From Sphagnum compactum (taxonomy: Eukaryota): DNA of 64,000 bases. The notes under the pieces were generated by a model. It was not told the origin of the DNA. It saw only the letters and a list, made by a program, of their open reading frames with translations, and did not search any database. How positions within the stretch are numbered: position 1 is the first letter of the stretch; every line of letters starts with the position of its first letter. The DNA is taken from the NCBI GenBank assembly GCA_965153455.1, contig OZ234494.1:5456001-5520000 (forward strand), given 5' to 3'. Positions 1 through 29,144 of this stretch are shown here, in pieces. The translations under genes and the position numbers were made by a program.

Positions 1-1689
1 TCCAAAATATTCCGGAAATTTTCGAAAAAATTCGAAAATTTTAGTGCAAAAATAATTTGGAAACTTGTCAGCAAATTTCTTTGGGGCTCGACTCAAGTGC
101 AAAATTTAGTGCTGTAATTTACAATCATCATATCGAAAGTGCACGCTTTGCGCAATACGTCCATTTCATTTGGTAGCCATTCGCAGCAGTAGGCGGCAGT
201 AGGCGCAAGCTACGAACGTGCTGATAACAGGTTAAACTATCTGTACACCGTGACATCTGTTCGCTACGGACGCACGGACGATTGGGTCGATGATACCACA
301 ACAATAGATTGTGGTAACGCACGTTGCACCTGTGGCAGTACGTAGATGGTAACGAGGATATCTAGAATTGTTACGATTGAATTCGATTGATAAATACGTG
401 GGTGCGCGTGACCTTATTTACCGACAGATGCAGAACTTACTACAAAATTGGAACCCCGTCAGTATTAGTACTAATGAGTAGATATTAGTGGACAAGGTTT
501 AAATTGCTGAATCTACACGTGCACTGATTATGCCGGATATAGCTTGCAAATTGATTAGCCAATTGAAAACCCGCACACGAGCTGTCGTCCAAGGTTTGTG
601 CATTATCTATGCTACAAAAACAGCTGACGTACACGCTTTGACGGACAGCACAATATGCATTTGTGGGGCTGCAGTTCAACGACTTTCCGTTTGTAACAAA
701 GAACGAGCACTATCCTCAACCTCCTGCGGCTGCATTTGGATTTTGCGTTGGCGTAAAAACGGAGCACGAAGTAGCCTAATTAACTGCATCATGATTCCTA
801 CTGCATTGGATTTTCCGTTGGCGACATAAGAGTCGCTCTGATCGACATCACATTGTCAAATTTGTTTTTCTCTTTTGCAGTTGGACTCCAGGAAATGTGC
901 CCAGGGATCGTGCAATTATTATTTAGTAGCCATGGACTACAACCACGTGTTATTTATCATATCATTGCCTAATTTTAGGGTCGTACATAGGAAAAAATTC
1001 TTTTCAAACTTGCATTTTAGGATCAATCAGAGGATACTGAAAAGTTAGCCTCAGCGTTTCATTTGAAGGCAAATTTACGCCAAATTTCAACCTGAAAAAT
1101 AATATTGCGACCTAAGCAAAGAAAATTTCAAGGACAAAATGGCCCAAATTCTCCAGACCAAATTTTTTTTGGATGATGGCCAATTTAACTACATCACAAA
1201 ATCCTTAAAAGAAAACCTGGTTAGCCTCATCAGGCAAGCTGAGTCTTTTTTTGGGGGACCAAAACTCATCAGAAGGCGACACAGTTTTCTCAAAATGGAA
1301 TATTTGGTCACAAGTTTCCTTTTTGAAGAAAATAAATTCACCGACAAGGGTCAGAAAACTGTTTTTTCAGGGACGGTTTTGCAACATTTATGCTTACTGG
1401 CTACAGTTTCAGGGGTTCCTTGAAATAAAGTCGGAAGTTAAGTCAATTTCTGCCTATGGATGCTTGCCACCTGGCTACAAAAGTGAGAAATAGAAAACAC
1501 TGATCAGTCGCTAACAGTGCTCTTATAATTCCGCGTGCAGCAGCAGCAGCGCTCATGATTGATGACAAAAATTCAATTAAACATCACCAGCTTTGCATAG
1601 ATCTAGTATGGCTTTTCAAATCACCTCATGCGTTACGTCCCCAATAGATAATCAATTGAGTTTGAACTTTGAAATCTGAAGATGGAATG

Positions 1690-1880
1690 TGATAATCTTT
1701 GTAGCTTCTGCACGTGTGCGAATATGAGATCATCACACGAGAGCTCAAATTCTCCTAATTTCTTCTAAAGATGGAATATCTTTGCAGCAGCATGTGAGAG
1801 AGATCACACGAGAGTTCAAATTCTCCTAATTTCTTCTAAATATGCACTATCTTTGCAGCAGCATGTTAGAGAGATCACAC
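1690..1880. repeat. Short tandem repeat (~67-70 bp unit, ~2.5-3 copies)
   Basis: Repeated ATCTTTGCAGCAGCATGTGAGAGAGATCACACGAGAGTTCAAATTCTCCTAATTTCTTCTAA; a single copy in duplicate B (~18280-18340). Confidence 0.8.
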
Positions 1881-2734
1881 TAGTGTGCAAATAAATTTAT
1901 CGATTAGGGACCTTAATCACGTGTGGCTAGAGGCCAGACCTGAGTAGCTCATGATATGTATGTACAGAAAAAAATGCATTCTACCCTTTCAAAACGAGTT
2001 TCCAACAATATGAACTCCAACAACTATTGCACACAAAGACGTCCACTAGTATGATATAATTGTAAGGCTTGTCACCTCTTTTTATCACAAGGAGACCATT
2101 CATGTAATTAGTTAGTGGGTTGTCAAAAACCACACTTAGATCTTGCAAAATCTTCACAACATGCAGTCCATCTATCTATTCATTCATACAGCAGCTCCAT
2201 AGCTGTCTCTTGTATGTGGATTATAAATAAAATGGATCAAACTTTTGAATAGATTGAAGGGAGTCTGATTAAATGGGTCATCTGCACTTTCATCTCAAAG
2301 TTCTCTGTGTACGTTCTTAATGTTCACCCTTCAAATCCTCATTCCTACTTATAACTGCAGCTAGGTCATTGGTACTCTTGTTGTTACTGGGACTCAATAT
2401 GCCTATCTTGTGATAAAATTGATCCCCCAGCTGGAGCAATTCTACAAGTCTATATAAATGCATACTCGGAGTCTGGGACACAAATATATGCATGTTATGT
2501 GTTCTGCTGCAACTTTTTGTTTTCATGATAATCTTAAAGTGCATCAGTGCCCTGAGGTTCAGAACTTGAGAAAGAGAGAGCCAGAGATGCTGGAGACTAA
2601 CTAATTTAGCTGCCGGTTCAATGTTCTGGATTGATCAAGCAGCTGCAGCTTGGACTTCATTACCCGCGGGCCGGGAGAGAATTCAGAGACCTCAGAATTC
2701 ACATGATCAGACAGTTTCTAAGTTCTGATAGAAC

Positions 2735-3440
2735 CATTTTGAATGGAACTGAGATCTGTGTACCTAGCTAGCTATATCAGAATCATGGCCAGAGACAAAG
2801 TTCAACATCACGATCTGCATTTCACATTGCAAAATTCAAAAACTGTATAGCTGTGGGGGCTTGCATGACAGCTGCAGTCATGAGTCATGTGTCTTCTTGA
2901 GTTTCTTCTGCACATAAGGAAGATGAAGAAACTGGAAAGCTACTGTGCGAGAGGCATGATCAATCATCTCAGAGCTGTTGCAAAGTCTGATCACTAGTCT
3001 CTTAGCTGCAAACCAAGTCGAAGCAGAACTGTCCAAGACAAATGTCAATCATCTTCTAGCTAGCTAGATAGACAAAGATCTAATGAACAATTCATTTCTC
3101 AGCTGCCTGACTCTTTGAATCTAGTACAAAATTGCCGTCACTAGTATAAAAGAGAATGAAACTGAGATCTGCACCTAACTAGATCAGAATCATGGCCAAC
3201 GACAAGTTCAACATCACCATCATTTCACACTGCAAAATTCAAAAAATGTGGAGTGGGGTATTTGCATTACAGCTGCAGTTGTAAGTCATGTGTTTTCTTG
3301 AGTTTCTTCTGCACATAATGAAGATGAAGAAACTGGAAGCCAAGTCAAAGTTTCTGTCCAGAGCAAATGTCAATCATCTTCGAGCTAGTAGGTCGCTAGA
3401 TAAAGGTCTGATGAAACATTCACCTCTCAACTGGTTGACT
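2735..3440. repeat. Local tandem duplication (~300-400 bp, 2 copies) 3' of the truncated AP2 paralogue
   Basis: ACTGAGATCTG...ATCAGAATCATGGCCA...GAAGATGAAGAAACTGGAA...CAAATGTCAATCATCTTC occurs at ~2745-3100 and ~3160-3440; a single copy at ~18975-19340. Confidence 0.8.
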
Positions 3441-3687
3441 CTTCCCTAGCCCTTGGAGATCGTTCTGAAACCGACCTACAGCACTCCCAGGGAACCTACT
3501 TATTGCAAATGTTTTTTCTGTGTTTTCCTTCAGATTTTCCAATTTTTTGATTTTCCAACCTGCATCAGTCATGACACAAAATTCCTCAAGATATGGACCT
3601 GTCCAGAGCCCACTTCCCGAAATCCAGCATTGCAGCGGATGGGTACTTCTTCGCATCATGAACTATAGCATACACTTTCGGGTGGAG

Positions 3688-4741
3688 TCACGCATTCCCG
3701 TTGTTGTTGGGACCATCTTCATGTGGGCGCAGAGTTTCGCAATCTTCCAGCTGAATACACAAACCACAGACATGAATCATCAGCTTATGATCCCGAAAAC
3801 CCGAAAGACATGAAGAGGAGAATCATGAATTGAATCGTGAGCATTCACACCTGGAATATTGCATCTGCAATTCCAGCTTCAACAACAGTGCCATCTGCTC
3901 CTTCTGCAACGTTTGCAGTTTGCGCATGGTATTCTGTCCACACCAAAACACAGAATATGTGAGCGAAAGAAGTTGCTAATCATCTGCACTCAGTCGCACA
4001 CCTATGATTCTGACATTTTAAGTTGCTGGCCGTGTTTTACATAGAGAATCTCATCATGGGACCACCCACAACCTGAAGACAAGCATGAATATCTGGAAAG
4101 GCCTCCTGCACTAGGAGTTGCAGCTTGTACATACAATACACCCACTGGGATTTGAAGGAAGAAATGTATTTACCAAGGGCAGCTTGCTGTGTAATAGTGG
4201 CCAGCAGATGCAGAATATGAACATCTACAGCCAGACGCATGTTGTATTCCTCTATAGATTCCCTGTGTAACGCACTGCAGCACAAATCATTCCATCCAGA
4301 AATGAAGCATCTTGGAACTCCAGCTGAAGCTCAGAGATTCAGATTCCCAGAACATGAGTGTGAGTTCACAACCAAAATTCTCAAAGAATCTGATGATGAG
4401 CAGCAACATGGGTGATGGGATCTTAGATTCTTATACCTGACTACCAAGCGCCACCCCGGCAAGTTCCTGCGTGTGTAATGATGCAGAAGTGGTGGAGGAG
4501 GAAGAGGAGGCATTGACACCAATGCGTGGACAATGTCAAGCCAAAACAGGTCAGGCGGCGGCGGCGGCATCTGACCCATCAGTGGTTGCGGCGTCCCGGG
4601 GATTGCGGGGATTGGAACCCTGGTGGGAGTCTCTGCAGCTGCTGAGAGCACTGGAGGAGGATTCTGGTCCTCTGCGGCTTCTACTTGCATACCCTCATCA
4701 GCTGACCCTGCAGGAAGCTTGTTGAGGTTGGAGTGAGCCAT
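3688..4741 (-). CDS. Truncated paralogue of the euAP2-like gene lacking the AP2 DNA-binding cores; exons 4741-4437, 4274-4174, 3933-3851, 3750-3688 (552 nt, 183 aa)
   Basis: N-terminus MAHSNLNKLPAGSADEGMQVEAAEDQNPPP matches MAHFNLNKLPLAAAADEEVQVEAAEDQNPPP. Exon 1 ends at AG|GTATAAGAATCTAAGATCCCATC, homologous to the intron-6 donor of the full gene (AG|GTATACGAATCTAAGATCCCATC). The downstream exons keep splice sites, phase and the same stop (GNA*). It could be a young pseudogene. Confidence 0.7.
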
Positions 4742-7700
4742 CTTGTTTCTTTCTTGTTTGGGAGCAACTTGACAGCGATGAGATGAGCACGAAAGCTTAC
4801 GGATATTCCAGCGAGACTACTAGAGAAGCAAGCTGCAAATCGTGTAGAAGCGAACTTGTCTATCTATCTGTGAGAAACCAAAAGAAAGTACTAGCTCAAG
4901 AAACTTTGCGAAATACGAAACCCTGAACGATCAGAAAGGATGATAGGGAAACACAAGCAAAGGAGGTAAGTCTAGCGAAAGACTTGTAAGGAAAGAAAGA
5001 AGATCGGGAAACAAACAAAAGAGTCGAAAGAGAAAGAGAAATGAAGCACAAGCAAAGGAGGCAAGAGCGAAAGACGAGCGAAGAAGGAAGGACGATCGGG
5101 AAAAGAAACGAAGGAGTGCAGAGCGAGAGCGAGAGAGACAATGGAAGTTCCGGATGTACAAAGGAAACAAGAGGAAACATGAGGAAACAAAGAGGTTTGT
5201 GTTTCCCATATAAATAGGTAAAGTGTACAAGCCATTTGGTTTTACTGCTGGTGAACAGGGGTTTCTATTGCTCAATTTTGTCATATAAAAAACTTTGCCC
5301 AATTTTTTCGAAAAAAATTTAGCAAAATTTGTTGAATTTACTCTTTTAAAGAAACAACAAGATTTCCAAAATGTTCCCAATTCCTTTGTCTAAAAATCAT
5401 CAAATTTTTCGAACATAAAAGCATTGTTGCAATTTACCCTTTATTCTAAAAAAGTTTTCAAAGTTTTCAAGATTTTTTTTTTTCGTCCCGAAAAAGTTTC
5501 ACCACATTTTCACTGACTCTTTAGTGCATTAGGACATTTCATAAATTTTCTACTGTTTGATCAATTTTGTAAAACCTCTTGCCAATATACTTTAAATCTT
5601 TTGTGGGATGCACACTAAGAACTAGTGTTTTTTTTTCTCTTTTTTCCACTTTGTGATGGTGCCACATTGGCCATCATCCACAACTTAGGAGATTTAGCCA
5701 CATTTGGATATAGACCAACCACCAAAGTAGAAAATGTATGAAAATATTTTTATATACTGGTTATTCAAGCTGATCAGCATTTATTTTTGGTTTGTTAATT
5801 TTTTTCATCCTGATCATGTCAAAAGGTAAAATCATTGGGCATATATGCATTTCCATGTTTTGCAATGTACATGGTCATGATTAACCTATAAAATTTTATA
5901 GTGACTAATGGTTGAACATGTTTTTGTTTGGCATATTTTAATGTTCATAACATTAACTGTCTTGAACAATTTATTTTACCACTTCTTCTTGAAATACCTT
6001 TAGATTTAATGGTGAATTGCCATCGTAAGCATGCTTTGAATATTTTGTAACAGCTCTCGATTGGTTTAATGCTATCTTTATTAACTTTCTTTTGTAGGTT
6101 GTTTGAAAATGTTTGGGTGCATGGTTTGCAATGTGAATTGCTCAAGTAATTGTCTTTCTCCACTTTGAAATGTATCCCAGTTGTGTAAGTATTTTCATTT
6201 ACCCTACATTTACCTAATTATACCCATGCATGGCGTGGATACTGTAAATAATGAAATTTTTTTTTAACTTGTCTTATTTTTTGAAATAGTAAACATCCTT
6301 CATTTACCTTTCTTGCTACTTGAATTGATCATTTTGCAAAGCTTAATATTATTCTTACCTTAATTACTCAGCTTGGAAAATTGAAGTTTAAATAAACTTT
6401 TATCCATTTTCATCTACTTCTCATCAATTTTGTAAAAGTTAAACATTTATGCAAGTAGATCCAATTGAAATACATATTAAAGATGTGGTTCTTCAATTTT
6501 ACTATAATAAAATACATTTTATTCGTATATTAATCATTGCACTATATAATATTTTCTACTTTCAATTCACCGCCATTTCATTATGACTATTTGTCAGTTT
6601 TTGGGACAACGAACAAAAACTATTTACTTTACCATGTTTTTTGCCTTTGCCAATTTTCAACCTGGTGAATATTAAATAATCTTAATCAATTATTGACTTT
6701 TGACCTGGTTATCAAGTTGGTTATCAATTTTTAAACACTTATACAAAATAAATAAACAAACATAAATAATAATATTTTAATTTAATTTTTTTTAAAACCT
6801 TGTAACCAGCTAATAATTGACATGATAACAAATGGTTGTTGATAGGTTATTGTATAATTTACCCTTATGCATAATTGACAACTGTTATTTGTTTGAAAAA
6901 TATTATTATTGATAACCTGTGTGGTTTTAATTATTTTTAAAAAAAAATTGTACGTGGTGGTTTTAAAAAAACAAAAACTCACCAACATTCATATTAACAT
7001 TCTAAAAATTGGAAAAAAAAAGTTTTAGAGGGTTTAATCACCAAATTTCACCCAAAAACTTAATGAAGTCATCTGATTTTGGGAAAATGAAAATAAAAAT
7101 AAAAATAAAAATTTCAAGATTTCTATGTCAGGTTCCAATAGGTACTGTAACATAGAAGGATGCTTTAAAAAAAAACTTTGGCTAAATCTTTTCATGGAAG
7201 AATGCCACTTCAATATGTCACAAACAAAAAAAGGCAAACCTTGAATATTAATGTCACATTAGGAGTTCGATTGTTTTGCTAACTAAATAAAAGCAGATCC
7301 ACCCGCACCCAATACGATTTTGAGCCTCTACCTGTATCTAGTGTTGGGTTGCTATAATAATTTTAACACATCAGTCAGGCCAGGGTGAAATTCAAAAAAT
7401 GTATGAGGTGGGTGACGGTATATAAATTTCAACAAATTTCCAAACTATGAATAAGGGCATGTAACCTTTCCAAAATTATTGTTTTGAATAAGCTAAAAAA
7501 GATGAAAAATATTTACCCTATTCACATGGTATTGGTTGTAAATATTTTTTTCATTTACCCTAGGTTTAGCATTTGGGTATAAATGAATCGATTTAAGCGA
7601 AATCAAAATATATACACAACTATGGCATATTGCTAAAAGGAAAAAGATAGCCCCTATTGCAATTGGCATTGCAAATTACAAATTACTCTCCCTTGGGAAA

Positions 7701-8087
7701 GGTGAACCTAAAATATACATGCCATCAAAATGGTAATAGTGTAAGTCTGAAATGTTTACCAATTGGCTAGGGTAATAAAAAAGGAAGCAAGAAAATTTTA
7801 CAAGGTGCATAGTCTATATATTTACCCTTGTATAAATTGCAACAATATGCAGGTCAAAATAACTTACCTACCCCACAATCATGTCTGTCACATCCAAAAT
7901 AGTGAGCACAAAAAAGAGCTAGTAAATTAATATATGTCCTTTTGATTTGCACCATGTCGAGTCATTGTTAGAACCGTATTAGTGGTAGTGATGGGGATCA
8001 ATTTGCACTCCACAGGTTATGAAAGTTATCTGTAAAATTACCCTCTCTTTCAGTGGTATCTATTAAATCTAAGTATGAAATACTGAG

Positions 8088-8418
8088 ACCCAGCATTCAA
8101 TGCACAAGGTTTGAGAGTATTTATAGTAGTTGCACAAGTAGAAGCAGTGAAAATATATGTAGCAGCAGAATCCCAGCATTTAATGCACAAGGTTTGAGAG
8201 TAATTATAGTAGTTGCACAAGTAGAAGCAGTGAAAATATATGTAGCAGCAGAAACCCAGCATTTAATGCACAAGGTTTGAGAATAATTATAGTAGTTGCA
8301 CAAGTAGAAGCAGTGAAAATATATGTAGCAGCAGAAACCCAGCATTTAATGCACAAGGTTTGAGAGTAATTATAGTAGTTGCACAAGTAGAAGCAGTGAA
8401 AATATATGTAGCAGCAGT
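8088..8418. repeat. Minisatellite, ~83-bp unit x4
   Basis: CCCAGCATTTAATGCACAAGGTTTGAGAGTAATTATAGTAGTTGCACAAGTAGAAGCAGTGAAAATATATGTAGCAGCAGAAA repeated four times, nearly identical. Confidence 0.95.
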
Positions 8419-9479
8419 GAAGGAGCTCAGGAAAAATGAAAGACAGGATGAAACTTAGTTTACCACCAAAATTGATGTAAAAAATTATTTTGGTGAAAAA
8501 TTAGTTTGGGTCCTCATTATTTTGTTTTGTAAAATTTTCATTCCCAATTATACGTTTGATGCCCTGTTATGCCAAAACTTGTTGTTCTCGCCCCATAATC
8601 CTATGACTTTAGGGATAACTCTGATCTTGCGTCTTTTTTGAGTTAAGATTCAACACATTATCAGTGAAGGAGTAAAATTATAGAATATCTTAATAAATAT
8701 CAAGCTTCAATTTGCATTGCACAGTAACCAAGGATTTCTCCCACAATTGCCAAACGATCCAAAGATTTTTTTTCTTTTGCTTCTTTCCCCTCTTCCTGTA
8801 TGTTTACTTGTGGATCTATGGGGTTAGTCCATCAAGGCAACCAAGGTTTTCAATAAATCATGTGTAAATAAGTAATTCAACTTTTTTTTTGGAATGACAT
8901 TGGAATTTGGTAGGTGCCTATCCGAAAACCCCTTTGCACTAACATAGTTGGGCACTTTGTAAAAAGCATGTACACATAAGTACATGATTAAGTTTTAAAA
9001 AAATGAGAATGCAAAACACCAAACCCCCCAAAGCAGTGATTGTTTTCAAATTTCAAATGTTGTGCCATTGGCTTAGCATCCCAAGAGGGATTTAGCATTA
9101 AATGGCGACAAGTTTTTTTGAACCTGTCTAAACATTCAAAACTGCTACCAATTGAAAGCAGGTTTCAAATGTGGCCCAAAAACAATTTTAACTTTTCTTT
9201 TCAAGAAACTGGAACCATTTTATTTCTATTTTTTGCATTTTGGCGAAATTTTGCACCAGAAGAAAAAACTGTCCATAAGGCTTCCTTTATGTATAACATT
9301 TCCCTAACTTTTTCTTTGGTGTCTGCAGGTACCATCCAGTGAAGTTTTTTCCAACAAAAGAAATTTCCGAATTTTTGGAAATAATGTTTTTAAGGTGTAA
9401 ATTTGACTAATTTTACTCAAATTAATCTAAATTGTAGCAAAATTAGTCAATTTTACACTTCAAAAATATTTTTCCAAAA

Positions 9480-9632
9480 ATTTGGCCAAAATATCACAAA
9501 TTTTTTTTTAAATGTGTTTCAAAAAATTTCATGTGTTTCAAAATGTGTTTCAAAAATTTTCATGTGTTTCAAAATATCACAAATTTTTTTTAAAATGTGT
9601 TTCAAAAATTTTCATGTGTTTCAAAATTTCAT
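9480..9632. repeat. Low-complexity tandem repeat (ATGTGTTTCAAAA units)
   Basis: Repeated ATGTGTTTCAAAAATTTTC. Confidence 0.85.
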
Positions 9633-11311
9633 GGCAGAGCCCACTCATGGTGTTTCCTTTGTTGGTGTGTAAAATTGTAGCAAAAGAGCAAATGATACAA
9701 ACCACAAGTATATGTGCATGTAAAAATTTGACACGATGAGAAGTTGATAAGTAGGCTGAATTTTATGGTTAAGGATTAATTTTAATTAGTTGTTGAACTC
9801 CATAGCTTTACAAACACTTGTTTTAATTTAAATTTTAGCATTGAAGAGTGTGTACATGAATTTGGACCTGATTTTTGAACTGGCATGGAGCTTGTTGAAT
9901 TTGAAACAATATGTAACATCCAAAACCAAAGGCTTTAAAATTTGGAAAAACCGTGTTGAAACCCTCAATGTTTAGGAAACCTCCACATAAATTTTGAATG
10001 TCAAAAGTGGGACTGGACATTCTGTTCAAAGAAAGAACCACACAACACTAGACCAAACCCTCACCAGAAGTTAGAATAGATATATTGGCATCTAACTGGT
10101 GAAGGTCAAAATTTGAAAGACCCAGCCCCTGCTTTACTTTTGCAAAAAGTTTAACCAGCAACCAACCAGTTGTTCTTTCATGAAACCCAATGGTTCTTTG
10201 AGGTTTGTGAAATACCTGAAGCAGGCGATTCTTTTGATTTGGATTTTTTCAAATACCCAGAACTGGCCAATTCTTTGATTCTGTTTTCTTAAAAAGGTAC
10301 CCTGAACAGGCAGTTCTTTCAAAAATCAAAGAACCGCCCGACACTGGAAATTATGGTCCACCTTCCATCTGTGTGCTGGTGAGTGTTGGTTCACTGTGGG
10401 TCTTTATCTGCTGGAAGACTCCAGGGAAGAGATGCAATGCTGGAAGAACAGACCAAACCATGAGCACGGACATCAGTGTTATTTCTTCCTGGTGAGATTT
10501 CGCCATTTTTTGACAAATAAATTCTGAAAATTATGTTTTGCAAGTGTGAATTTGATTAGTTTTGCTATTTTTGGGTGAAATTTCGCAAAAATTTTGATAC
10601 CCAAAAAATGAAAAAAAAACACCGAACGACATGCAAAGTGTTGTTGCCAACTCGAGCTCTACCCAGAATAGAGATCTGCTTTGTTTTTTTCCCCTTTTCT
10701 TCTGTTGATACCCATTGTCTGTGATGCCTTGTTTTTTTTGCCCTTTTCTTCTGCTGATACCCATTGGGGATCACAGGCAAAAAAAGAAAAAATTGGGGAA
10801 ATTATTTTAATAATTGGAATGGCTGCTGGAGCAGACATTCTGTTTCTGGAGATTTCCCCTCCCAAACAGCTAGGTAACTTGGGCTCCAAGTACGCTACGA
10901 AAATTGGAGCAGGTCTTTCAATAAAATGCAAATAAATCATAGATAAAGACGAGGACAATTGCCTGTTCTTACAATGATTATCCCCATTTCTAGTTTAGTA
11001 CAGTTTCATAAAAGCTTTAGCATAAGTCTGGAGCTATGATTGTATATTCATCAGTAAAGTACAACAGACCTGTATAGTTGTTATGTTCAAATCCTTCAAA
11101 ATAAGTGATGTTAATCATGATGAAGCATGGCATTCAAATAATTTGGAGCATGGGTATTCTTTTCAATTCTGTGGGTGAATTTTGCAAAAACCCAGAAAGT
11201 TAATGAAAACTGTAGTGCAAAACAGACTTGTCCAGAATTTCCTCCAAAAACATTTGCCAGCTGGTTGCCAAAATTTGCCACAGAAATAAAAATCTGATTG
11301 GGAGTACAAAC

Positions 11312-11592
11312 CATTGTTGGAGGCTCTTAGAATTTTTTAAGAATTGCCGGTTCGGGTTTTTGAAATGTTACAGACTCAAAGAACCACCAGTTCCTCTTCT
11401 TTGAAAAAATTTAAATTAAAGAACCAGTGATTTTCATGAAAGTACTGGCAAAGAACTTGGGATTCTTTTGTCTTGTTCGGTGACTTTTTTCAGATTTGTT
11501 AGGGAATTTTTATATAACTGACAAGTAAATGTCTATATACCCAGGAGTAACTAGTGGGTATTTTTCCTGATTTTAAGAACCACCAAACACTA
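11312..11592. mobile_element. hAT-type MITE
   Basis: Degenerate TIR CATTGTTGGAGGCTCTT / AAGAACCACCAAACACTA; 8-bp TSD GTACAAAC/GTGCAAAC (7/8). Confidence 0.6.
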
Positions 11593-11856
11593 GTGCAAAC
11601 TATCAATTAAAAGAATTTTTGTGCAGAGTGTGAGACCAAACTTTTGTGGCTGTTGAAGGGTGAAAGTAAATAGGAATAACTTGGGTCAATAAAAAGTCGT
11701 CTCCAGACCAAAGGAAAATTTGTTATCCCTCTCGCAGGCACAGTGACATTCATAACATTGTAAATCATGCAGCATATTGTGTTGTGTAGGGTAAAGCTCT
11801 AAGTTGGGGTATTCCTAAAATAATGGGCATATGACCAGTGCTAGCCTGTTTTCATC

Positions 11857-12647
11857 CAGTGTTGGGCGGTTCTCAAACTGGCTCTCAGGCCGGTTTTTGA
11901 AATGAGAATCGGTTGAGACTTGTACATGTGAGAACTGGATAGAGAACCGAATCCAAGTTATGAGATGCACAATAAACGGTCATGAGAATCGCCTCCCACG
12001 TTGTTTTCAAAAAGTTGGAGAACGGAACAGGTTCCCTGCTGGAACCTAAATTCTCTCAAAGGTATGGATACACTTAAGTCTCTTAAACGAGAGTTGGTGT
12101 AAACAGGCAGGGCCTGACAGACGGCGCAAGTAAAGTATCATTCATGACAGCTACTGCTGCCCGACCTCATTAATACAACACTTTTCCTCATTAAATTCTC
12201 CCTCTCCTTCGCTCCATTACTCCCCTGGGTTCATACTGTTCATTGTACCCAGTTCCCAGCAACCTTCTCCTCCAAGCAAAGCAAGCAACCTACAGCACTC
12301 ACCCATAAGACTTCCCCTCCACCTCCTCCCCCGCCCCCAAACACACAACTCTCCTTCACTCTAATTGGGAATTATAATTTGGAAAGGAAAGAAAATGAAA
12401 GAAAAAAAAAAAAAATCAAATTCGTCACATTTTTACTTCCTTGCATTTTGCATTAGATAACTGGATTGGGAGAACCGGGTTTAAAACCTGGTTGTTATTT
12501 TATTTGTGAGAACCGGTATGTCTAAGAATCAAACAAAATGAAAATGTTAAAAAATTTGATATGGTCCAGTCCAGTTCTCACTGACTGGTAAAATAAAATA
12601 AAATTCAAGAACCATTCTCAAAATTTGGTGAGAACCGCCCAACACTG
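11857..12647. mobile_element. hAT-type non-autonomous element
   Basis: Perfect 19-bp TIR CAGTGTTGGGCGGTTCTCA / TGAGAACCGCCCAACACTG; subterminal GAGAACC repeats; TSD degenerate. Confidence 0.8.
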
Positions 12648-13568
12648 GTTGGATCCTGAACTTTTATAACCCATGGGTTTTAACCCTTCAATGTGCACCA
12701 GGCAAATGTTATAAAATATATATAGATCACAAGTTGTAGGAGAGTGACCTTCTTACTCTGTAAGATCTCTCCTCTTTTATTAAGAGAGATATTCATGATC
12801 AAAGATGACTGCCAATTACACTACAAATTATCTCCAACTGCTTTTCACTTATTGCCACTCAGCCCGCTCAGGGTCCTCTTTTCAATTTTGTGACATAAAG
12901 AATTTATGAATCTTTCCAAAATCTAGCAAAATTAGTTGAGTTTACACTATTAGAAAAAGACAATCCCAATCTTTGTGTCGACATGGCAACAAAACATTTG
13001 GAAAAAAACACTTATTCCAATGAAGTTGCACAAGCAACAATAAGACTATCTCGAAGAAACAGGTATCTAATGGTCTGGCTGTTGAGGCAGTTTAGAGGGG
13101 TGGAAGTGGGAGGTGGGCAAAACTTCAGATGATTCCACAGTACAAATTGTCCCTGCATTCATTGTCATTATACAGGGAACTTTTGATGAGGTCGTTTAAT
13201 GTACATTGTAACTCATGTTATGTCACCCCTCACCTAACTACTTCAATGCCAACATTGGAAACTCTTAGGTTTGTTACAGAGTACATGTCTTATGGATTAT
13301 TGAGAGTTTAGGATGCCCCAGCCATGATGGCCTGACCAAGAACAATTTTTGTCAGTTCTGGGTTCTAATCCAGTTTCCAAGACAAGTTTTGGGGAACTTG
13401 GAAATTGCAACCTTTTACATTCTAGATAGTAGAGAATTGTCACTAGAACAGAGCAAAAGAATTGGCCACTGGTTAAAACCAGTGTGGGGAGGGTATTTCT
13501 TTTTCCATGGGGTATTAATTGGGTATCAGATCGAATATATATGCATATATGCCTGTCAGATTTAACAC

Positions 13569-14284
13569 CAGTGTTAGGCGGGTATCAAAACTTATACACC
13601 AGGTCAGGGTATCAATATTTTTATTAAAAAAGTTTAGTAGGTTCTCATGATGTTGATTCTAATAATTTAAGAACAGCCAATTATCGTTTGGTGGTTCTCA
13701 CTCACTAGTTATTATTTTTTACAAATAGAAACCAAAATTACAAACAAATTATTGATTTTATTTTTATTTTTAAAAAATTTTAAATCATCTTTATCAGTAA
13801 AGTAATGAAAACACAGCACCCGAACCCAGAGTTTGGTTATACATGAGGTGAGATTCTTAAAAAACTTGCAAAGATTAGCATTAAGGGGGGTTTGAAACTC
13901 ACTAAACTGAGTTTCATCCTATCTTTCATTTTTCTTGAGCGCCTCCACTGCTGCTACATGTATTTTCACTGCTCCTACCAGTACAACTACTATAATTAGT
14001 TTGAACCTTGTGCATTAAATGCACAACCTTGTTTAATGATTGTGCATTAAACCTTGTACGCTTTATCCTGAGAACCTGACCCGGGTAGAAAGTTTTTTCT
14101 CACCCGGGTCTCAGTATTTAATTTTTTCAGAATCCGGTTCTCAAATTCTCATGCAAGTGAGAACCAGTGATCAAGCGTTCAGTGACCATATCACAGAAAG
14201 CAATACCTTAAAGGTTTCAAATAAAGATAAACAGATGATAACCGAGTGATATTCAAAAGCATTTTTGATACCCACTCAACATTG
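13569..14284. mobile_element. hAT-type non-autonomous element
   Basis: TIR CAGTGTTAGGCGGGTATCAAAA / TTTTGATACCCACTCAACATTG; perfect 8-bp TSD TTTAACAC. Confidence 0.85.
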
Positions 14285-16252
14285 TTTAACACTTGCCCTC
14301 ACCTCATAATCAGTGATTTTAAATCATTTTTGTAACCAAACCCAACCTTGGTAGAATAACAATGCAAGGTGTTTTTCAAAAACTTGGATCGATAACCTTT
14401 TCATCCCTAAAAATATCACTATTGTGTTACTCAATAGTTGGATTGTAATTTTCTTTTAGCTTCAATGACAACTATGACAATCACCTTTTTAAAGTTTTGT
14501 TTTGCACTCTGCCTTCAAAATTTGTAATTGTATTATCTTTAAATTGCAAAGAAAAAAACTCTTTCTTGTTAGCTAAAAAGACTTAAGATTATTTGTCAAA
14601 GCCTAAAAGACCTGACTTTGTAGGACATTGTGAAATTCTCAACATGTGTTTTGAAAGGGGTCTTTTAAAAACCTTGATACAAAAACCTGTTTGTACTCGT
14701 CTGAATTTTGGTTAAAGAATTGAGCTTTTTACCTAGTTAATCACATGTGCTAACCCTTGCCCACACCTCATAATTTATTTATTTTGAGTTTCTAAGACTT
14801 AGACCCAAATGATTTTTTTAATCTCCTAAAAATTAAAAAAACAGACCCAGGCAAGTCTTTGAATTTTGTATTTTCAAATACCCAAACCCAACTATTTTCT
14901 CAAAAAAGAAAACTCGTCCAATTCTTACTTATCAAAGAAACCTTGGATTCTAAGAGTTTTTTAATTTCAAAGAAGCTCTAGTCCACTTCAAAACATAAAT
15001 GAATAAATCTTTTTGTAAGAACCTTGAGTCTAGTCGTGGCTCTCCACATTCCGAGACTCTTGGTTCTTCAAAAACTAGTTATGTTTGCCCATACATGCTT
15101 GATAAAAGCTAAAAATCATGTATGCATGTCTACTATCTTAAGGTAAAAACAAAATTTTACAATATAAAAGCCAACAACAATGCAAGCAAATTAATCAATT
15201 AAAAATTAATTTCATTATGATTTTTGTTATCAAATCTTCATCAAAACCTTATTGAATTTTCTAAATAACATCAAATTAATTCAAAACATTTATCTCAAAA
15301 AATAATTTTATATTAAATTTTAATTTATTTTTATATTGACATGTTCTATTTTAATCAATTCTTGCATAATCTTTCAAATCAATTTTTTAAGAATCTCATT
15401 TGAGTAAGATTTAAAGGAATTTTGTGGTAATTATTTTTATGTTTATCAAACAAATTTCATTTAAAAGTTTTGTCACATGAAATTTACATTTCATAATGAT
15501 ATGAACCTCGTGATAGAAAAAGGCAAATGACAACCCAAACATTCATATTTTGAGAAGAAACCCAACAAGTAGATGACTAGACTACCAAACAACCCATCAA
15601 ATGGATGGGTGTGGATGTATGCATCCAAAATCTACACATGCTCATCCATTAGCTTGATATAATTTTGATATAAGAAGGAACAAATCCCCAATTGTTTTCC
15701 AAAATATAGTTGTATTTCAACCTGGTACTTTTAGGTCTTCTCTTATGTCACAATATCCTTTGGACTAATTTTATGTGCATGGAGAGTGGCAGCTGCAAAC
15801 GCAACCCTTTAGATCCTAATTAAGTTCACAAAATTATCAACTCCATGATGTTTTCAGAAAATTTTCCAGAAGAATTTCAAATGAATTTTTTTTTAATCAT
15901 TTTATTCAAAGAAATATTTATTTTTAATTTATTTCCTCAAAAAAAATCAAAAAATTCTTCAAAAGATTGCTCTGCACAAAGTTTATGTAAGCTGAGAACT
16001 CTATTATTCTTATACAAAACAATTGACTACACTTGAAAAAATGAGAAAGAAAGAATGTCCATAAATTAATTCCATGTGAATGAGAAGCTGCAGCACATAT
16101 TGGGATCTGCAAATCATAAGAGACCCCAGTGTGAAGCCTGGGTCCCAAAATTTGACAAACCCAATCTTCAAAATATCTAAAGATCATGATTCTGGTAAAT
16201 TCAAAAGGGTTACTTAGATTCATGATCTTGCAGGAAGGAAATGAATTCAGAC

Positions 16253-16539
16253 CCGCGTTTTTTTTACTGGCGAATTTCGCCAAATCCCTACCTGAAAAAT
16301 ATGATTTTGACCTATAGGAAGGATTTTCCATGAAAAAAATGGCTCAAATTCGCCAGATCTCGAAAAAAATTTCTACCAATCGCCAGATTTTTATTATTAG
16401 TTCCAGTAAGTAACCCAAAATATAGAAAGATTTTGATTTTTTCCTACTTCCATATTAGTACATGTGACCAAATTTGGCTAAATCACTTTGGAGATGAAGC
16501 CACCTTGGCTGCATCACAAAATTGGAAAAAGAAACCGTG
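16253..16539. mobile_element. Dispersed MITE-like repeat (related copies near 1030-1500, 57000-57230, 58640-58940, 61320-61460)
   Basis: Shared core CCAAATTTGGCTAAATC..., T-rich/A-rich termini, degenerate 8-bp flank ATTCAGAC/ATTCGGAT. Confidence 0.55.
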
Positions 16540-17099
16540 ATTCGGATTACACATAATATAAGATCTTGATTCTCTGTGTTTACATTTAAGTACTTTTTTC
16601 ACTGACTTAATTTACAGGGAAACACCAATCGAGATAATGAGCTGCAGCACTTGGGAATACTGTTCTTTATCATCCCTTCATGCGTGAAGGTAGAATTGTG
16701 GTTCACGTGTAATGAGGAAAAATGATTGGCAGCTTCAGGAGCGGACCAGAAAGAAAGAAAGTGGTCATTCTTCTACTCACTCAGGTTTTCTCCAATAATT
16801 TCATGCATCAAGACGTCTGTAACGTCATTTTTGAAATGGTCACATGGATGCAGGGTTTTTTTTTCCAATTTTCTGATAATTTCGTAAATTTGGCAAAGTT
16901 TTTCACAACATGTGTAAATTTAGTTTCAAATTTTTACAGCACAAAAAATATATATATCCAAAACTTCCCCCAGTTTTTGGTCAAAAACTCTTCAAAATTT
17001 GTCGGCAGAGGGGAAAAAAAAAAGGCACAAAATTTGTAAGCAGAAATTAATGCACTAAATAATTTGCAAAAATCGTCATCATTATGAGTGTGCACGGTT

Positions 17100-17900
17100 T
17101 GTGGAATCCGTACATTTGGTAGCCTTTCGTGGCAGGCGGCGACAAAAGGCGCAAGATGCCAGCTTGGCGATAACAGGTAAATACGACAATATTCCGTTCT
17201 GCCACGCAAGCAAGTGGGGAAATCAAGTGTCACATCTGTTCGTTACCGCGCGGCACAGACGCACGAACGGCGCACGAACGGCGGCGCACGGCTTTTGTAC
17301 GATGATGATACGACAACAATCGATTTCGGAAGTGTGACCGTACGTACTCAGACGCCAGGCAATCCAAAATTGTCACAATGGAGATCGATTGAGAGATTCG
17401 TGGATGCGCCTGATCTACCGACACCTGCAAAATTCGACCATCTGTATTAATACTAATAAGTATATCATTAATGTACTAGGATTAAATTGATTAATCGGCA
17501 CGTGCAATAATTAGAAGGGATGTACCTTTCAATTGATTAGCCAATTGAACACCCGCAACCAACAAACGACCGGGCAGACGCACAGTTGGATGTTGCATTG
17601 ACGGCGACAACAAGAGCTGTCGTCAAGCTTTGACTGATGTCACCGTCCGCCGTATGCATTTGTGCGTGCGGAGCTAGATTTGACTTGCTTCCGTTGGCGA
17701 CAAAAACGAGGACTAGCGTCGCCGCCACTGGCAGCTTTTGGGACTTTGCGTTGGCGACAAAAAGGGGCACTATGGAATCTATATAGCCTCATCTGCACCC
17801 GCACGTAATGAATGATTCCAACTGCCTACTTGGATTTTGCGTTGGCGACAAAAGAGTAGAGCAATAGCCGGGCATCCTCTGAACGATGTCAAATTCAAAT
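17100..17900. promoter_or_regulatory. CpG-rich island with repeated CGTTGGCGACAAAA motifs, G-box and CCAAT; homologue at ~130-850
   Basis: Much higher CpG density than the surroundings. Three exact 14-mers at 17692, 17749 and 17840; CACGTG at ~17499; CTATATATAG at ~17779. Confidence 0.5.
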
Positions 17901-19577
17901 TTATTTATTTTTAATTGACTCCAGGAAATGGGTGTTAATTATTTTTTAATACGAGTGCCTAATTTTATCATCATGATCTCGTACGTTGTAGAAAACAAAT
18001 TCTCTTGACACTGAGTGTTAGAATTAAGATTAATCAGAGGACATGCAAAAAGTTTGCTCATCAGACGGCTCAGTAACAGTATCAGAATGCTCAATATTCC
18101 ACGTCCAGTTGCAGCCTAACGTTCTCCTCTTGATGACAAAAAAATTTCAGTTCCAAAATATCACTCACTAGCTCTGCATATCTAGGATTGCATGTATGCC
18201 TTTTCAGATCACCTGTGCTACGTCCCCATAGATAATCAATTGGGTTTGAACCTTGAAATCAGAAGGTGGAATGTGATGATCTGTACAGCTGCACAGGTGA
18301 GTGAGAGCCATCACACAAGGCTGCAAATTCTCCTGCAAATTTCATCAGATTGATTGATTAGGGGACCTTAATCACGTGTGCACAGCAGCTGAGAAGCTCA
18401 TCATATCTGGAAAGTGCATGCACAGCAAAATGCACGTACAAACGCTTTCCACACGAGTTTCCAAGATAACTCCCAACAATTACTGCACACAAACTTCAAA
18501 AACGTCTTTGGACGTACTTGAAAGTTGAACTAGGAAGTTGAATCCATCAAATCGTGAATCCTATAACTTGTAACTACAGCTTCGAGTGCTGCAGGAGCTA
18601 GGAGTCATGGGTATTGTGATAAAATTGATGCCCCAGGTGGACGGACTTCTGCAAATCTAAACAATGCATGTAGTGGAACACAACTATAAGCATTTTATAT
18701 ATGTTCTTCTACACTCTACTAGTGTTGATGATGATAGCACAGTGCATTAGTGCCCTGGGGTTCAGAACATAAGAGACAGAGCCAGAGATGGTTCAGACCT
18801 GGTGGTTTTAATATTGTTCTGGATTGAAGTAGCTGCAGTTTCTTCATTACCCGGAAGAGAATTCAGAAATTTCAGATTCACGTGATGATACAGTTTCTCT
18901 AAGTTCTGAGCCTTTTGCAACCGTGACTGTGCAGTAAGCATCTCCATAATTAATTGCAGTCACTAGTAGAAAAGAGAATGGAATTGAGATCTGCATCTAG
19001 CTAGACCAGAATCATGACCAACGACAAGTTCAATATCACCATCATTTCACACGGCAAAATTCAAAAACTATAGAGTCGGGGATTTGCATTACACCTGCAG
19101 TTGTAAGTCATGTGCTTTCTTGAGTTTCTTCTGCACATACTGAAGATGAAGAAACTGGAAAGCTACTGTGGTGCGAGAGTCAAGATGAATCAGCTGCTGC
19201 TGGGAACTCTGATCACACACTTATTACAAATTCCTGAGCTGCAGACCCAAGTCAAAGTTTCTGTCCAGAGCAAATGTCAATCATCTTCTAGCTAGTAGCT
19301 AGCTAGATAAAGGTCTGATGAAACATTCACCTCTCAGCTGGTTAACTCTTCCCTAGCCCTTGGAGATCGTTCTGAAACCGACCCACAGCACTCCCAGGGA
19401 ACCTACTTATTGCAAATGTTTTTTCTGTGTTTTTCTTCAGATTTTCCAACCGGCATTAGTCATGACACGAATTCCTCAAGATATGGATCTTTCCAGAACC
19501 CACTTCCGGAAATCCATCATTGCAGCGAATGGGTACTTCTTCGCATCATGAACTATGGCATACACTTTGGGGTTGGA

Positions 19578-22500
19578 TCACGCATTCCCGTTGTTGCTGG
19601 GACCATCTCCATGTGGGCGCAGAGCTTCTCGATCTTGCAGCTGAATACACAGACCATAGACATGAATCATCAGCTCATGATCCCGAAACTTGAAAGACAT
19701 GAAGTGGAGAATCATGAATTGAAGCATGAGCATTCAGACCTGCAATATTGCATCAGCAATTCCAGCTTCAACAGCGCCATTTGCTCCTTGTGCAACGCCC
19801 AGAGTTTCCGCATCTGTCCACACCAAAACACATAGAAGATGTGAGCAAAAGAAGTTCCTGATCATCTGCACTCAGTTGCACAGCTGTGAATCTGACATGT
19901 TTAGCTGCTGGTGTATTACATAGAGAAGCTCATCATGGAACCACCCACAAGCTGAAGACATGATTGTCATCTGCAAGGGCCTCCTGCGCTAGGAGCTGCA
20001 GCTTGAACATACAATACAACCACTGGGGTTTGAAGGAAGAAATGTAGTTACCAATGGCAGTTTGCTGTGCAGTAGTGGGCAGCATACGCACAACACGAGT
20101 GTCAAGGATATCTTGAGCTACATGCACGTTGTTTTCAGCCATAGCCTTGTGGTAAACCGCACTGCACAAATCAATAAATCCAGAAATTGAAGCATCAAGA
20201 AGCTGCAGCATCTGGCTTAATACTACTAGGGTTTGAATCTGAGAGATTCAGATTCCACAGAAAATGCATGTGAGTTCACAACAAAGGTTCTCAAAGATTC
20301 TCATGAGGAAAATGATTGATGGGATCTTAGATTCGTATACCTGGCTGCTTCTTCTTCTGTGGCATACATGCCAGTGTACTGAACGTAGGGACTGCAAAAA
20401 AAGATGGAGATCAAGCTGAGACTTAGTCGTGACAGTACTCATTGGACTTTGCACAGCAGCAAGCTTGCAGCTTGCAGCATGCATTTGTGTGACCATGGAG
20501 ATCAGCATTTAATGATGATCAATAGTTCAGGGATGGAGTTGTTGGAATTATTCTTACCAATAGCCTCCAATTCCCCAACGATAACCCTTTTTGTAATGGG
20601 CTGCAAAGGTCCCATTTTCCATCTTTGTCACAAACGGGTATTTCAACACCGCACCAGCTGGTCCATCACTGTCTCGCTGCAGGAACTTCAGCATCTGGTT
20701 CTTGGTGAGATGCCTCAGCTGCAAAAAAACATTGTGCAAACCATTACCACGCAGAAACCTCAATCACAAAGCACCCATCTTCTTACAACCCCTAGAAAAC
20801 TCCAGACGCAGCATAACTTATGACATCTAGGGATCAATCGGAGAGAATGGTGGAGGATGGGTCTGACTTACCCTTGCAAGTCCAGCTTCGTACTGCTCGG
20901 CGGGTTTGAAATTGATTTTGTGCAGAAACTCTTGCACATTCAGCGCAAGAACTGCTCGATCAAAAGTCCTACAATGAATATCACCCAAGAATTCAGAAAT
21001 CACTCCAGACTTCAACTGCATTTTCAGTAATCATCAGGTGATGCTGCAACTTCCAGGTTTTGAACGAAGACCGTAGTCAAGCAGAAACAAGTACATAATA
21101 CATTCCAGCTTGAGCACATCAGGATGCATGCAGCAGCAACAGACCTATACTAAAAGAACCTGGACATTGCAAACATATAGAGCTCAGGGGTATACCTTGC
21201 AGCCTCTTCTTGAGTAGGGTATGAACCTATGTTCCAAGACAAAGCACAAAAGTCAACAGAGGATTTCACAGACAGTTAGACTTGCATTGTAGTGCAAGAA
21301 AATGTCCGGCCTCATGCATACTCAAATAGAACTCTCAATTGCAAAACATAGTTTTCTATGGCATTCTCAAACTGGAGTGAAGCAAGTCTTGAGCATGTAA
21401 GGGTGGATGGAGTATAAGAACAACTACCGAAATGCCGTTCAACTCCGCAATCCCTGCAACCACAAAACACACATGGGATTAGGTTTGGAATCATAATAGA
21501 ATCATGGTTACAGCTTCTCTACTGCATTATGAATGTCATGCAAGAAAACAAACTGTTCAGCAACACAGGATTGGAGAGTCTGTGGAGAGCTCACCAGAAA
21601 CGGGTTTCCCACCGACCAGTGTGCCGGTTGTAGACAACCCCTTGATATTGAGAGGTTACTGGCGGAAAACGTCGACGTCTCCTTGACTGCGATCTGCCGG
21701 CTTCGGCCGAATGTGCTCTGTTGATTGGGTTGATGACATTCCCAGCGACTCCTTGGGGGCATCGTCGTCGTCGTCTCCTTGCGTGTCTGCCGGTCGCGGG
21801 AGCTGCTCTGTTTGGGTGGTTGACATTAGTACCTGCAATGGCGACGGCTTCTGCAAGAACCGGCAGAACTGCTTCTTCCTCGTTCATGATCTCCTCCATG
21901 GGCGCATCGTCTAGGTCGTTATCCGGCAACTGCTGTTGCTGCTCCTCAGAGGCATTTTCAACAAGAGGCAACTGCACATCATGAGTACTCTGATCGACTC
22001 CATCACCTTTTTCTTCTTCTTGCACCGTGATGGTCAGGTGGAGCTGAAGTGCCAGAGTTTCATCAATATCGCCACCAGGTTTAGCTCTGTCAAGAACTTT
22101 TTCACAAGTTGCTGCTGCCATTGCAACTCGAGTTGGATGCACTTCAGGAGCGGGGACTAGATCGACATTGCCGGGGCTTGCAAGCTTGTACCTCGGAACG
22201 TGGAATCTCGACTTCTTGGAGGCAGGAGGATAGTGCTCCTTCTCATGTGGAGAGCTTGGCACCCAGTGCATGGGTACGCCCCATGCAAAACTCGGCAGCT
22301 CGTTGCTTCCAGGAAGATGCAGAAAAGTTCCATGAGGAGGAGGAGGAGGTAGTGCCGCCAATGCTTGGACAATATGAAGCCATCCGAGCTCCGCCGGCAG
22401 CTCTGGCCTCTCTACTGGGACCTCGCCCATGGGTGGCGGTGGCAGGGGGATGTAGATTTCTACCGGCGGAATTGCAAGAGTCCGAGCTGCTGCTGAGACC

Positions 22501-22598
22501 ACTGGAGGAGGAGGGTTCTGGTCCTCTGCGGCTTCTACCTGCACCTCCTCATCAGCGGCTGCTGCTAAAGGAAGCTTGTTCAGGTTGAAGTGAGCCAT
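19578..22598 (-). CDS. Divergent euAP2-lineage (APETALA2-like) double-AP2-domain transcription factor, 9 coding exons: 22598-21595, 21453-21428, 21226-21196, 20968-20872, 20718-20558, 20391-20341, 20161-20052, 19813-19740, 19640-19578 (1617 nt, 538 aa)
   Basis: All introns are GT..AG and phases join in frame. R1 reads SQYQGVVYNRHTGRWETRFW|DCGVERHFG|SYPTQEEAAR|TFDRAVLALNVQEFLHKINF, against recalled AP2 [57 protein letters not shown]. Exon sizes of 26 and 31 nt match euAP2 genes. Linker LRHLTKNQMLKFLQRDSDG resembles MTNLTKEEFVHVLRRQSTG. The last two exons are less certain but are conserved in frame in the paralogue. Confidence 0.88.
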
Positions 22599-28500: not shown

Positions 28501-29144
28501 AGGCCATACTAGGTCTTGTACAGATCCCAACAAATTTGAGTTGTTAAACCAAATCTAAAATTGTTCAAAATCTCTAAGTTGCATTGTATTGAATCCAAGT
28601 CTTTGAGGTATTCAAGAATCATATCTCTAACAAGGGGATGGGTGAGGAACGTCTCAAATGTTTCTTGTTGTAGACCATTGTCTAGACCCTTCATTTGTTC
28701 CATGACGAACAAGGCCATATTCCTTGAAATTTCTGTAATTATCTTTTGAGGTTGTCTTTGATACTGTCGCAAGTTTTTGGGGGCTACACTTGATAGTACT
28801 TCAAGAGCAACAACCTCTTCTACTTTAGTGCATCAACTGTTACTTTTTTCGAGTTTTACACCTCCTAACACATTCTTGAGTGTCATCCTTTCTCTTTTGT
28901 GCATACCAAGCTTCATGCTCGATAATTTGTCCAATTTGCTAAAACTTTTCAAATCCTTCTTTGTTTCTTGGTTCTCTAAACAAAGGTGCCATGATAACAC
29001 CTAGCCAAAACCTGCAATCAAGACACAATGCAAATAACTTCTTCAGTGGTCACTACTAGGTGTAGAATGGAACATTCAATAGGAGTTATAGTAACTATTT
29101 TCCTAGTTTTTTCAAATGGTTAAGATTCACCTAAGGTCCAATGG

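Follow-up and report, generated by a model that had tools for sequence, protein, structure and literature searches.

An AP2-less paralogue formed by in-frame deletion in a divergent double-AP2-like gene and conserved in a peat-moss tandem array

The window analysed here is a stretch of 64,000 nucleotides of the Sphagnum compactum genome (assembly GCA_965153455.1, contig OZ234494.1, positions 5,456,001 to 5,520,000). It carries on its reverse strand a short gene at 3688–4741, without AP2 repeats, and a full-length paralogue at 19578–22598, whose product is a divergent double-AP2-like protein. The short gene, as modelled by script, has four exons of 305, 101, 83 and 63 nt, together 552 nt encoding 183 residues. 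Exon 1 (4741–4437) opens with ATG at 4741–4739 and encodes an N-terminal module, MAHSNLNKLP..QVEAAEDQNPPP, followed by a Pro-rich stretch, a W-L-x-I-V-x-A-L stretch and a variable end. Exon 2 (4274–4174) is hypervariable and is a remnant of the region of the C-terminal helix of the second AP2 repeat (R2), and exons 3 (3933–3851) and 4 (3750–3688, stop TGA at 3690–3688) jointly encode a conserved tail, ..EAGIADAI.QLED.ETLRPHEDGPNNNGNA. All three introns run from GT to AG and all six splice sites are intact. The model agrees with the intact four-exon frame, kept splice sites and kept stop described in an earlier, sequence-only reading of this DNA, and the protein contains all three parts listed there as retained: NLNKLP (residues 5–10), the W-L-x-I-V-x-A-L stretch and the C-terminal tail. 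The product is rich in Pro, Ala and Leu (24 Pro, 23 Ala), has a net charge of about −14 and contains no basic run.

The segment with the short gene, 360–9000, is collinear with about 17360–27290, which carries the full gene. Because both copies sit in this collinear tandem segmental duplication, seen by self-comparison, their resemblance is not due to chance, and tblastn within the window finds only these two copies. The stretch absent from the short copy, about 1.9 kb at 20350–22282 on the reverse strand and corresponding to residues ~106–456, took with it the acidic stretch, an LxLxL motif at 182–188, Arg runs at 274–279 and 306–310, the first AP2 repeat (R1), the linker and most of R2, in accord with the loss proposed from the sequence-only reading. 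That reading had also joined exon 1 to the intron-6 donor in phase. The phase is upheld and the position of the join is not: short exon 1 finishes in ~9 nt (4437–4445; ..AGTCAG) that align with the 3' end of full exon 6 (AGCAGCCAG), and the intron-6-type donor, GT at 4436–4435, comes next. Since the end of short exon 1 corresponds to the end of full exon 6, the event is an in-frame exon 1/exon 6 fusion, and it is in phase because short exon 1 and full exons 1–6 each leave 2 nt for the next codon. Both gene models and the junction alignment thus confirm a domain-loss paralogue made by in-phase deletion. The downstream exons pair in the lengths previously claimed, 101/110, 83/74 and 63/63 nt (short/full); the 101 nt of exon 2 reflects an in-frame 9-nt loss private to the window copy, as every related locus has 110 nt.

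Between the two window copies the exons are less alike (68% identity in exon 1, 70% in exon 2) than the introns (85–91%) and the 3' untranslated region (93%), which is explained by the pattern of selection on the short genes described below. A block at 3130–4442 is more alike between copies (82–93%) than the flanks and leader (72–77%): aligned with 18952–20346, identity climbs from 76–77% in the leader to 85, 88, 91 and 93% across the introns and the 3' untranslated region, dropping thereafter to about 73%. Exon 1 of the short and full types differs by 0.57–0.73 synonymous substitutions per synonymous site (dS). This divergence, with the leader at 76–77% against the block at 82–93%, suggests that the 3' part was homogenised after duplication, probably by gene conversion with the full copy; alternatively, constrained non-coding parts may keep the block similar. 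We had considered a conversion tract beginning exactly at the junction and softened this, as identity climbs gradually from 85% in intron 1. A conserved 5' leader implying shared regulation was dropped, the leader being only 76–77% identical. Downstream, the 3' flank of the short gene contains a direct duplication of ~200 bp (2741–2937 versus 3154–3338, 84%), and a 71-bp tandem repeat (2.3 copies, 91%) lies further down at 1732–1892.

Sequence comparison places the family in Sphagnum only. Translations of exon 1 match peat-moss sequences alone, with 9 matches for the short gene, among them S. fallax BDL97_02G035800 and one S. jensenii protein, and 4 for the long exon 1; a HMMER search with the long exon 1 against 1.84 billion representatives returned five proteins, one full-type and four short-type clusters. 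A search for longer proteins with exon 5 gave nothing. Short types are annotated in four species: in S. fallax under the adjacent locus tags 02G035700 (186 aa) and 02G035800 (169 aa), in S. jensenii, and also in S. troendelagicum and S. balticum, always with the same four exons. The S. jensenii proteins of 186 aa (A type), 169 aa (B type) and 533 aa (full type) have consecutive accessions, the last bearing the UniRef name 'AP2/ERF domain-containing'; annotated full-type proteins measure 480–551 aa.

A scan of metagenome contigs added 17 loci, confirmed from 282 pattern matches. The two full-type loci are collinear with window 15759–28521 at 93% identity and the 15 short-type loci, comprising 10 distinct sequences by their first 600 nt, with window 1–11000 at 86–92%. 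All 11 complete short-type loci have an open four-exon frame with GT-AG at every intron (305 nt, or 299 or 302 in two, then 110, 83 and 63 nt), so frame-breaking alleles, which the sequence-only reading had raised as a possibility in other accessions, are absent among them. Three of the incomplete loci end at a contig edge after exon 3 with the frame open and one is cut within exon 1. The exon 1/exon 6 junction is identical in 11 of 11 short-type sequences compared, which, together with the annotations in four species, disposes of a deletion private to this assembly or haplotype. Trees split the short genes into an A and a B clade, and one 74.6-kb contig carries two of them (L009 and L001), B followed by A, equally oriented and separated by 18.5 kb. 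The window copy groups with B (support 91 from all sites, 44 from non-coding sites only) and adjoins the full copy, as the B type does. On this sequence comparison it is a B-type member of a Sphagnum tandem array ordered full, B, A, and an A-type copy in its genome would lie beyond coordinate 1. The deletion, on the same comparison, predates both the A/B split and the species sampled. Non-coding distances are 0.13–0.16 between full and short types, 0.04–0.07 among short types and 0.03 between two full types.

Selection was analysed on eight short-type sequences (the window copy, L009, L008, L006, L001, L003, L013 and L014); this set excludes the exact duplicates L002, L004, L007 and L010 as well as L005, L011, L012 and L015, which are incomplete. 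Replacement (N) and synonymous (S) changes were counted by parsimony on the tree, and the maximum-likelihood (ML) ratio of their rates, omega, was obtained for seven sequences under GY+F1X4, with p values of the likelihood-ratio test (LRT; statistic 2dlnL) taken from chi-square. For the whole gene N:S is 104.5:23.5, with a count omega of 1.45 and an ML omega of 1.79 (2dlnL 6.7, p about 0.01), and the parts differ greatly. Codons 1–58 of exon 1 give N:S 14:5 (count omega 0.9, ML 1.32, 2dlnL 0.29), and codons 59–103, termed exon 1b, give 45.5:9.5 (count omega 1.7, ML 2.23, 2dlnL 5.4, p about 0.02). Exon 2 reaches 38:2, with a count omega of 5.7 (p = 0.002) and an ML omega of 14.9 (2dlnL 14.4, p about 1e-4), and the tail in exons 3 and 4 has 7:7, with a count omega of 0.31 (p = 0.03) and an ML omega of 0.38 (2dlnL 2.95). 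Omega is therefore not uniformly near 1, the outcome that the sequence-only reading had set against its proposal, but ranges from about 15 in exon 2 to about 0.3–0.4 in the tail, and the N:S ratios of these two parts differ (Fisher p = 0.0005). Exon 1b and exon 2 have accumulated 0.43–0.46 replacements per site, three times the intron figure of 0.15 (p about 1e-8 to 1e-10), and the synonymous rate (23.5 over 138 sites, 0.17 per site) agrees with that of the introns. The central ~80 residues, from the end of exon 1 and from exon 2, thus outpace the introns, nearly all by amino-acid replacements.

The reading frame itself has been guarded. A length divisible by three is seen in 4 of 4 coding indels, compared with 4 of 26 non-coding ones (3 of 15 intronic, 1 of 11 flanking; hypergeometric p about 0.003), and the 128 inferred substitutions introduced no stop, against an expectation of 3.7. 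Compared with the full type, the N-terminal 34 codons show an omega of 0.2–0.3 at a dS of about 0.6, and the tail, at a dS of about 0.1, has 10–16 replacements versus 3 synonymous changes. The changes private to the window copy are 13 N:2 S in exon 1b, 8 N:1 S in exon 2 and 3 N:2 S in the tail. Judged by these substitution patterns, selection maintains the frame, the splice sites and the C-terminal tail, and the middle that remains has been driven apart by positive selection. Frame, indels, splice sites and heterogeneous omega together led us to reject the view that the whole family consists of pseudogenes. A diverged function fits better than a faithful mimic of the parent, given the positively selected middle and the fixed short-versus-full differences in the tail.

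The full-length neighbour has nine exons on the reverse strand, at 22598–21595, 21453–21428, 21226–21196, 20968–20872, 20718–20558, 20391–20341, 20161–20052, 19813–19740 and 19640–19578 (1004, 26, 31, 97, 161, 51, 110, 74 and 63 nt, ATG at 22598), and encodes 538 residues. Our model is identical to the annotated S. compactum protein P0035 over residues 1–354 plus a further 86. For searches of Pfam, structures and databases with spliced proteins, annotated orthologues stood in for the window proteins. The end of full exon 1 matches AP2 profile positions 1–18 (E 0.021) and WRI1 (E 0.0018), and the first repeat with the linker was recognised in a phmmer match of orthologue P0036 (query 314–424) to WRI1 7wq5 at E 1.5e-7. 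Pfam AP2 stays below threshold in all five annotated full-type orthologues (13.6–18.1 bits versus 33.3, a single stretch), and the second repeat is undetected by Pfam and phmmer; R2 as read from the translation has no residues of the YRG/RWE type, the consensus of AP2 repeats. AlphaFold2 (AF2) models the full type poorly, with a mean predicted local distance difference test score (pLDDT) of 32.6 and sheet-plus-helix units at 316–352 and 426–476. On this model of pLDDT 32.6, Foldseek places WRI1 first (E 2.6e-5, 176 columns spanning both repeats). At the level of sequence, the recognisable AP2 part of the full type is R1 plus the linker only.

Micro-exons of 26 and 31 nt lie inside R1 of the full gene, and micro-exons of this kind are typical of the AP2 lineage. 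In the annotations of all five full-type orthologues the exon 3 donor lies 36 nt downstream (window 21196–21160), which inserts 12 residues, YTPELYMFAMSR, into the R1 helix; the 31-nt exon restores the usual helix. The annotated S. compactum model also skips exons 6–8 and finishes in another frame. No miR172-type site was found anywhere in the window at up to 3 mismatches to the 21-nt target consensus, and miR172 is not known from mosses. The sequence-only reading had called this gene a euAP2 gene. With no miR172-type site, a sub-threshold Pfam AP2 match, only R1 and the linker recognisable and an overall omega of about 1.0, that name does not fit, and by its sequence features the neighbour is an atypical AP2 gene and no canonical euAP2. 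Compared with the orthologue L016, omega is 0.38 at residues 1–105 and 0.35 over the last 45, and about 1 or more across the deleted part, R1 included. The short gene has thus kept those portions of its parent that seem to be under constraint, a suggestive pattern from two full-type sequences only. In this orthologue (L016/L017, the full-type loci from metagenome contigs) RWE of R1 reads WWD, and the linker has a 12-nt in-frame insertion (RDSV).

No AP2 domain (PF00847) was found in the short type: Pfam gave no family of any kind for P0012 and P0013 (E up to 10), for P0014, P0017 and P0022 (E up to 1) or for the translation of the window's short exon 1. Lacking AP2 repeats, the short product presumably cannot bind DNA as an AP2 protein. 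The AF2 model of an annotated short-type orthologue indicates helical propensity at 67–76, 97–116, 120–144 and 158–172, and among ESM Atlas look-alikes of the short-type P0017 the best scored 0.77 and was unrelated. Open reading frames antisense to the two genes (3469–3813, 19311–19835, 20389–20823 and 22085–22588, all forward) hold no Pfam family.

By origin and architecture the closest analogy for the short gene would be with the trans-microProteins, separately encoded small proteins that are related to a larger regulator and are without its DNA-binding part. LITTLE ZIPPER with its HD-ZIPIII targets is an example of such a microProtein and target. The two genes here are likewise related in kind and different in size, being tandem paralogues of 183 and 538 aa. 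PMC9303315, from which the definition of trans-microProteins is taken, gives miP1a/b, acting on CONSTANS, and LITTLE NINJA as examples; the short gene for its part sits next to its parent as a tandem copy. In classical microProteins a single defined interaction domain persists, whereas the short type keeps two peptide modules of ~30 residues and no recognised domain; it is also rather long at 183 aa, its middle is positively selected and its binding to the parent is putative. A complex prediction of full with short type scored 0.00, with its controls not folded, and has no bearing on binding. Compared with the AP2 subfamily (WRI1 7wq5; euAP2/TOE), the parent matches WRI1 in sequence over R1 and linker and in low-confidence fold; the short gene has no AP2 repeat, and the parent itself is atypical. 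The genes also resemble lineage-specific, fast-evolving duplicates in forming a tandem array within one genus with omega above 1 in part of the protein, with the difference that the fast part here lies between two conserved modules inherited from a transcription factor. Among the matches listed in our literature searches there was no description of these genes or of AP2-derived microProteins in Sphagnum, nor, in the microProtein literature, any AP2-derived case.

Thus, the short gene is a real, conserved, lineage-specific domain-loss paralogue, and we consider it very probable that its family is a genuine protein-coding one under selection; the window's own copy is likely to be functional. The explanation that we prefer overall, to which we give a probability of roughly 0.6, is that of a conserved AP2-less paralogue, made by in-frame deletion, that probably acts as a modulator through the end modules it shares with its parent. 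The short gene descends from a tandem duplicate of the divergent double-AP2 gene through a single in-frame exon 1/exon 6 fusion. According to this explanation, its product would most likely work through the shared N-terminal ~30 and C-terminal ~30 residues and would then engage one or more partners of the full-length protein as modulator or competitor, and its variable middle may have acquired a role of its own. That the short protein acts specifically by competing with or binding the full-length protein is possible but somewhat doubtful, and the decoy or antagonist role first proposed for it we treat as a hypothesis.

Several observations weigh against the preferred explanation. The short type has neither a recognised Pfam domain nor a confident fold (mean pLDDT 42.9), the LRT gives only marginal support for purifying selection on the tail (p about 0.09), the 7–8 sequences analysed come from about 6 lineages and in part from metagenome contigs, and gene conversion among copies could distort the substitution counts. 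The overall omega of about 1.0 for the full copy versus L016 counts on the same side. Annotated B models begin at Met18 and so are without NLNKLP, and one partial locus (L015, 1522) has GTG at codon 1 and retains Met18. In the window copy the otherwise conserved tail has undergone three replacements of its own (E>Q, L>F and R>C), in addition to the private loss in exon 2, and the protein of this copy was not found among annotated proteins (best 83% identity), unlike that of the full copy. Finally, a polyA RNA run under the same species label, with 11.9 million records, put 0 reads on either gene. None of the runs screened contained as much as half of the words sampled from the stretch. The polyA run was one of four compared with window 3300–23200; over that interval it gave 19 reads, all in repeats and none at least 99% alike. 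The one piece over the short gene from an RNA library is a 151-nt contig at 4633–4782 with 5 mismatches, present in two metatranscriptome runs that are apparently one data set filed twice, and DNA carry-over is possible. No splice junction of the short gene was seen in the four runs, which is uninformative either way on expression. As described in PMC9946827, the Joint Genome Institute (JGI) pipeline for two Sphagnum genomes keeps models with homology support or transcript coverage; because homology support suffices, the S. fallax models are weak, indirect support for expression at most.

Some of these points are also what would be seen if the window copy were an unexpressed or decaying relic in its source species, its frame open by chance: it is missing from the annotated proteins found although its neighbour is among them, it has no RNA reads, and it carries the private deletion and changes in the conserved tail. 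We regard this as unlikely, as the reading frame is open with none of the six splice sites damaged, the private deletion preserves that frame, the private tail changes (3 N:2 S) are not clearly relaxed, and those of exons 1b and 2 follow the pattern of the family. Nor does it seem to us that gene conversion, or an error in the frame or in the exon model, has produced the elevated divergence of the exons as an artefact. Conversion is probable given how much more alike the 3' block is between paralogues than the flanks, and the gene models are projected by homology, not based on RNA. Synonymous and intron rates nevertheless agree, the excess lies in replacements only, conversion from a diverged copy would bring synonymous changes as well, and independent annotations in four species share the four exons; this explanation is very unlikely.

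The proposal that the short protein is a decoy bearing an EAR (ERF-associated amphiphilic repression) motif, titrating TOPLESS-type co-repressors from a full-length euAP2 protein, came from the sequence-only reading, which called NLNKLP EAR-like. This N-terminal motif is conserved in short and full types starting at Met1 and, one residue off DLNxxP, resembles the motif of repressors that recruit TOPLESS; there is a precedent in the microProtein miP1a/b, which carries a TOPLESS-interaction motif (PMC9303315, PMC4807768). The consensus forms, LxLxL or DLNx(x)P (PMC6283911, PMC9956375), are however matched by none of six short-type proteins in a regular-expression scan, which have only NLNKLP. 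The sole full-type matches are the LxLxL at 182–188 (LALQLHL), found in 4 of 4 full types scanned, and they lie inside the part that was deleted. As the B models starting at Met18 lack even NLNKLP, and the neighbour lacks euAP2 hallmarks, we find the decoy proposal quite improbable and do not retain the term EAR-like for this motif.

A function unrelated to the full-length protein, with the hypervariable helical middle co-evolving with another partner, is more difficult to set aside, though we still think it doubtful. It would account for the omega of about 6–15 in exon 2 and about 2 in exon 1b, for tail replacements fixed between short and full types (10–16 N:3 S) in a tail conserved within short types, and for the second short paralogue, the A type, kept in tandem; the helices at 97–116 and 120–144, predicted at low confidence, would fit as well. 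The counts are small, however, and the N- and C-terminal modules are still recognisably common to the full type. A more speculative combination, which we hold to be improbable, is that the A and B types form an adaptively evolving pair and are no passive decoys, their helical middle, perhaps derived in part from the remnant helix of the second repeat, serving as a surface for recognition in an evolutionary chase. Through both of its inherited end modules the short protein might then plug into the regulatory complex of its parent, and candidates for the partner in the chase, no less conjectural, would be the fast-evolving full-length protein, a factor from a microbe or parasite, or a partner in reproduction. 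If this were true, the genes would provide a regulator found only in peat mosses that is derived from a transcription factor, has no domain and is positively selected.

Should the preferred explanation be correct, with short proteins modulating the full-length AP2-like protein, they would represent a natural regulator of the microProtein type from the AP2 lineage in a bryophyte; should it be wrong in this respect, an annotated hypothetical gene family is all that is left. The locus offers a dated, multi-species example in which the duplicate of a transcription-factor gene becomes, by one in-frame deletion, a small new gene that is then reduplicated and positively selected. It does so in a genus of ecological importance, hardly any of whose lineage-specific genes have been characterised.

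Scans of the window for Rfam families and tRNAs gave none. An 83-bp unit is repeated 4.0 times at 97% identity at 8088–8417, with an inverted partial copy at 13948–14022. In a DNA-like run from a relative the bins over this repeat have a contig depth of about 20,000–25,000 versus about 100–400 elsewhere, and because this is far above the surroundings the unit belongs to a high-copy repeat family. On the reverse strand, 48420–48782 has a sub-threshold match to PEARLI-4 (phospholipase-like; E 1.3e-4, 22.1 bits versus a cutoff of 29.9), accompanied by an open frame of 268 aa at 49674–50480, and tandem repeats of 20–78 bp lie just upstream at 47041–47711. On the forward strand, a 176-aa open frame at 59547–60077 matches the Pfam family Self-incomp_S1, homologous to the plant S1 self-incompatibility protein, at E 4.3e-20.

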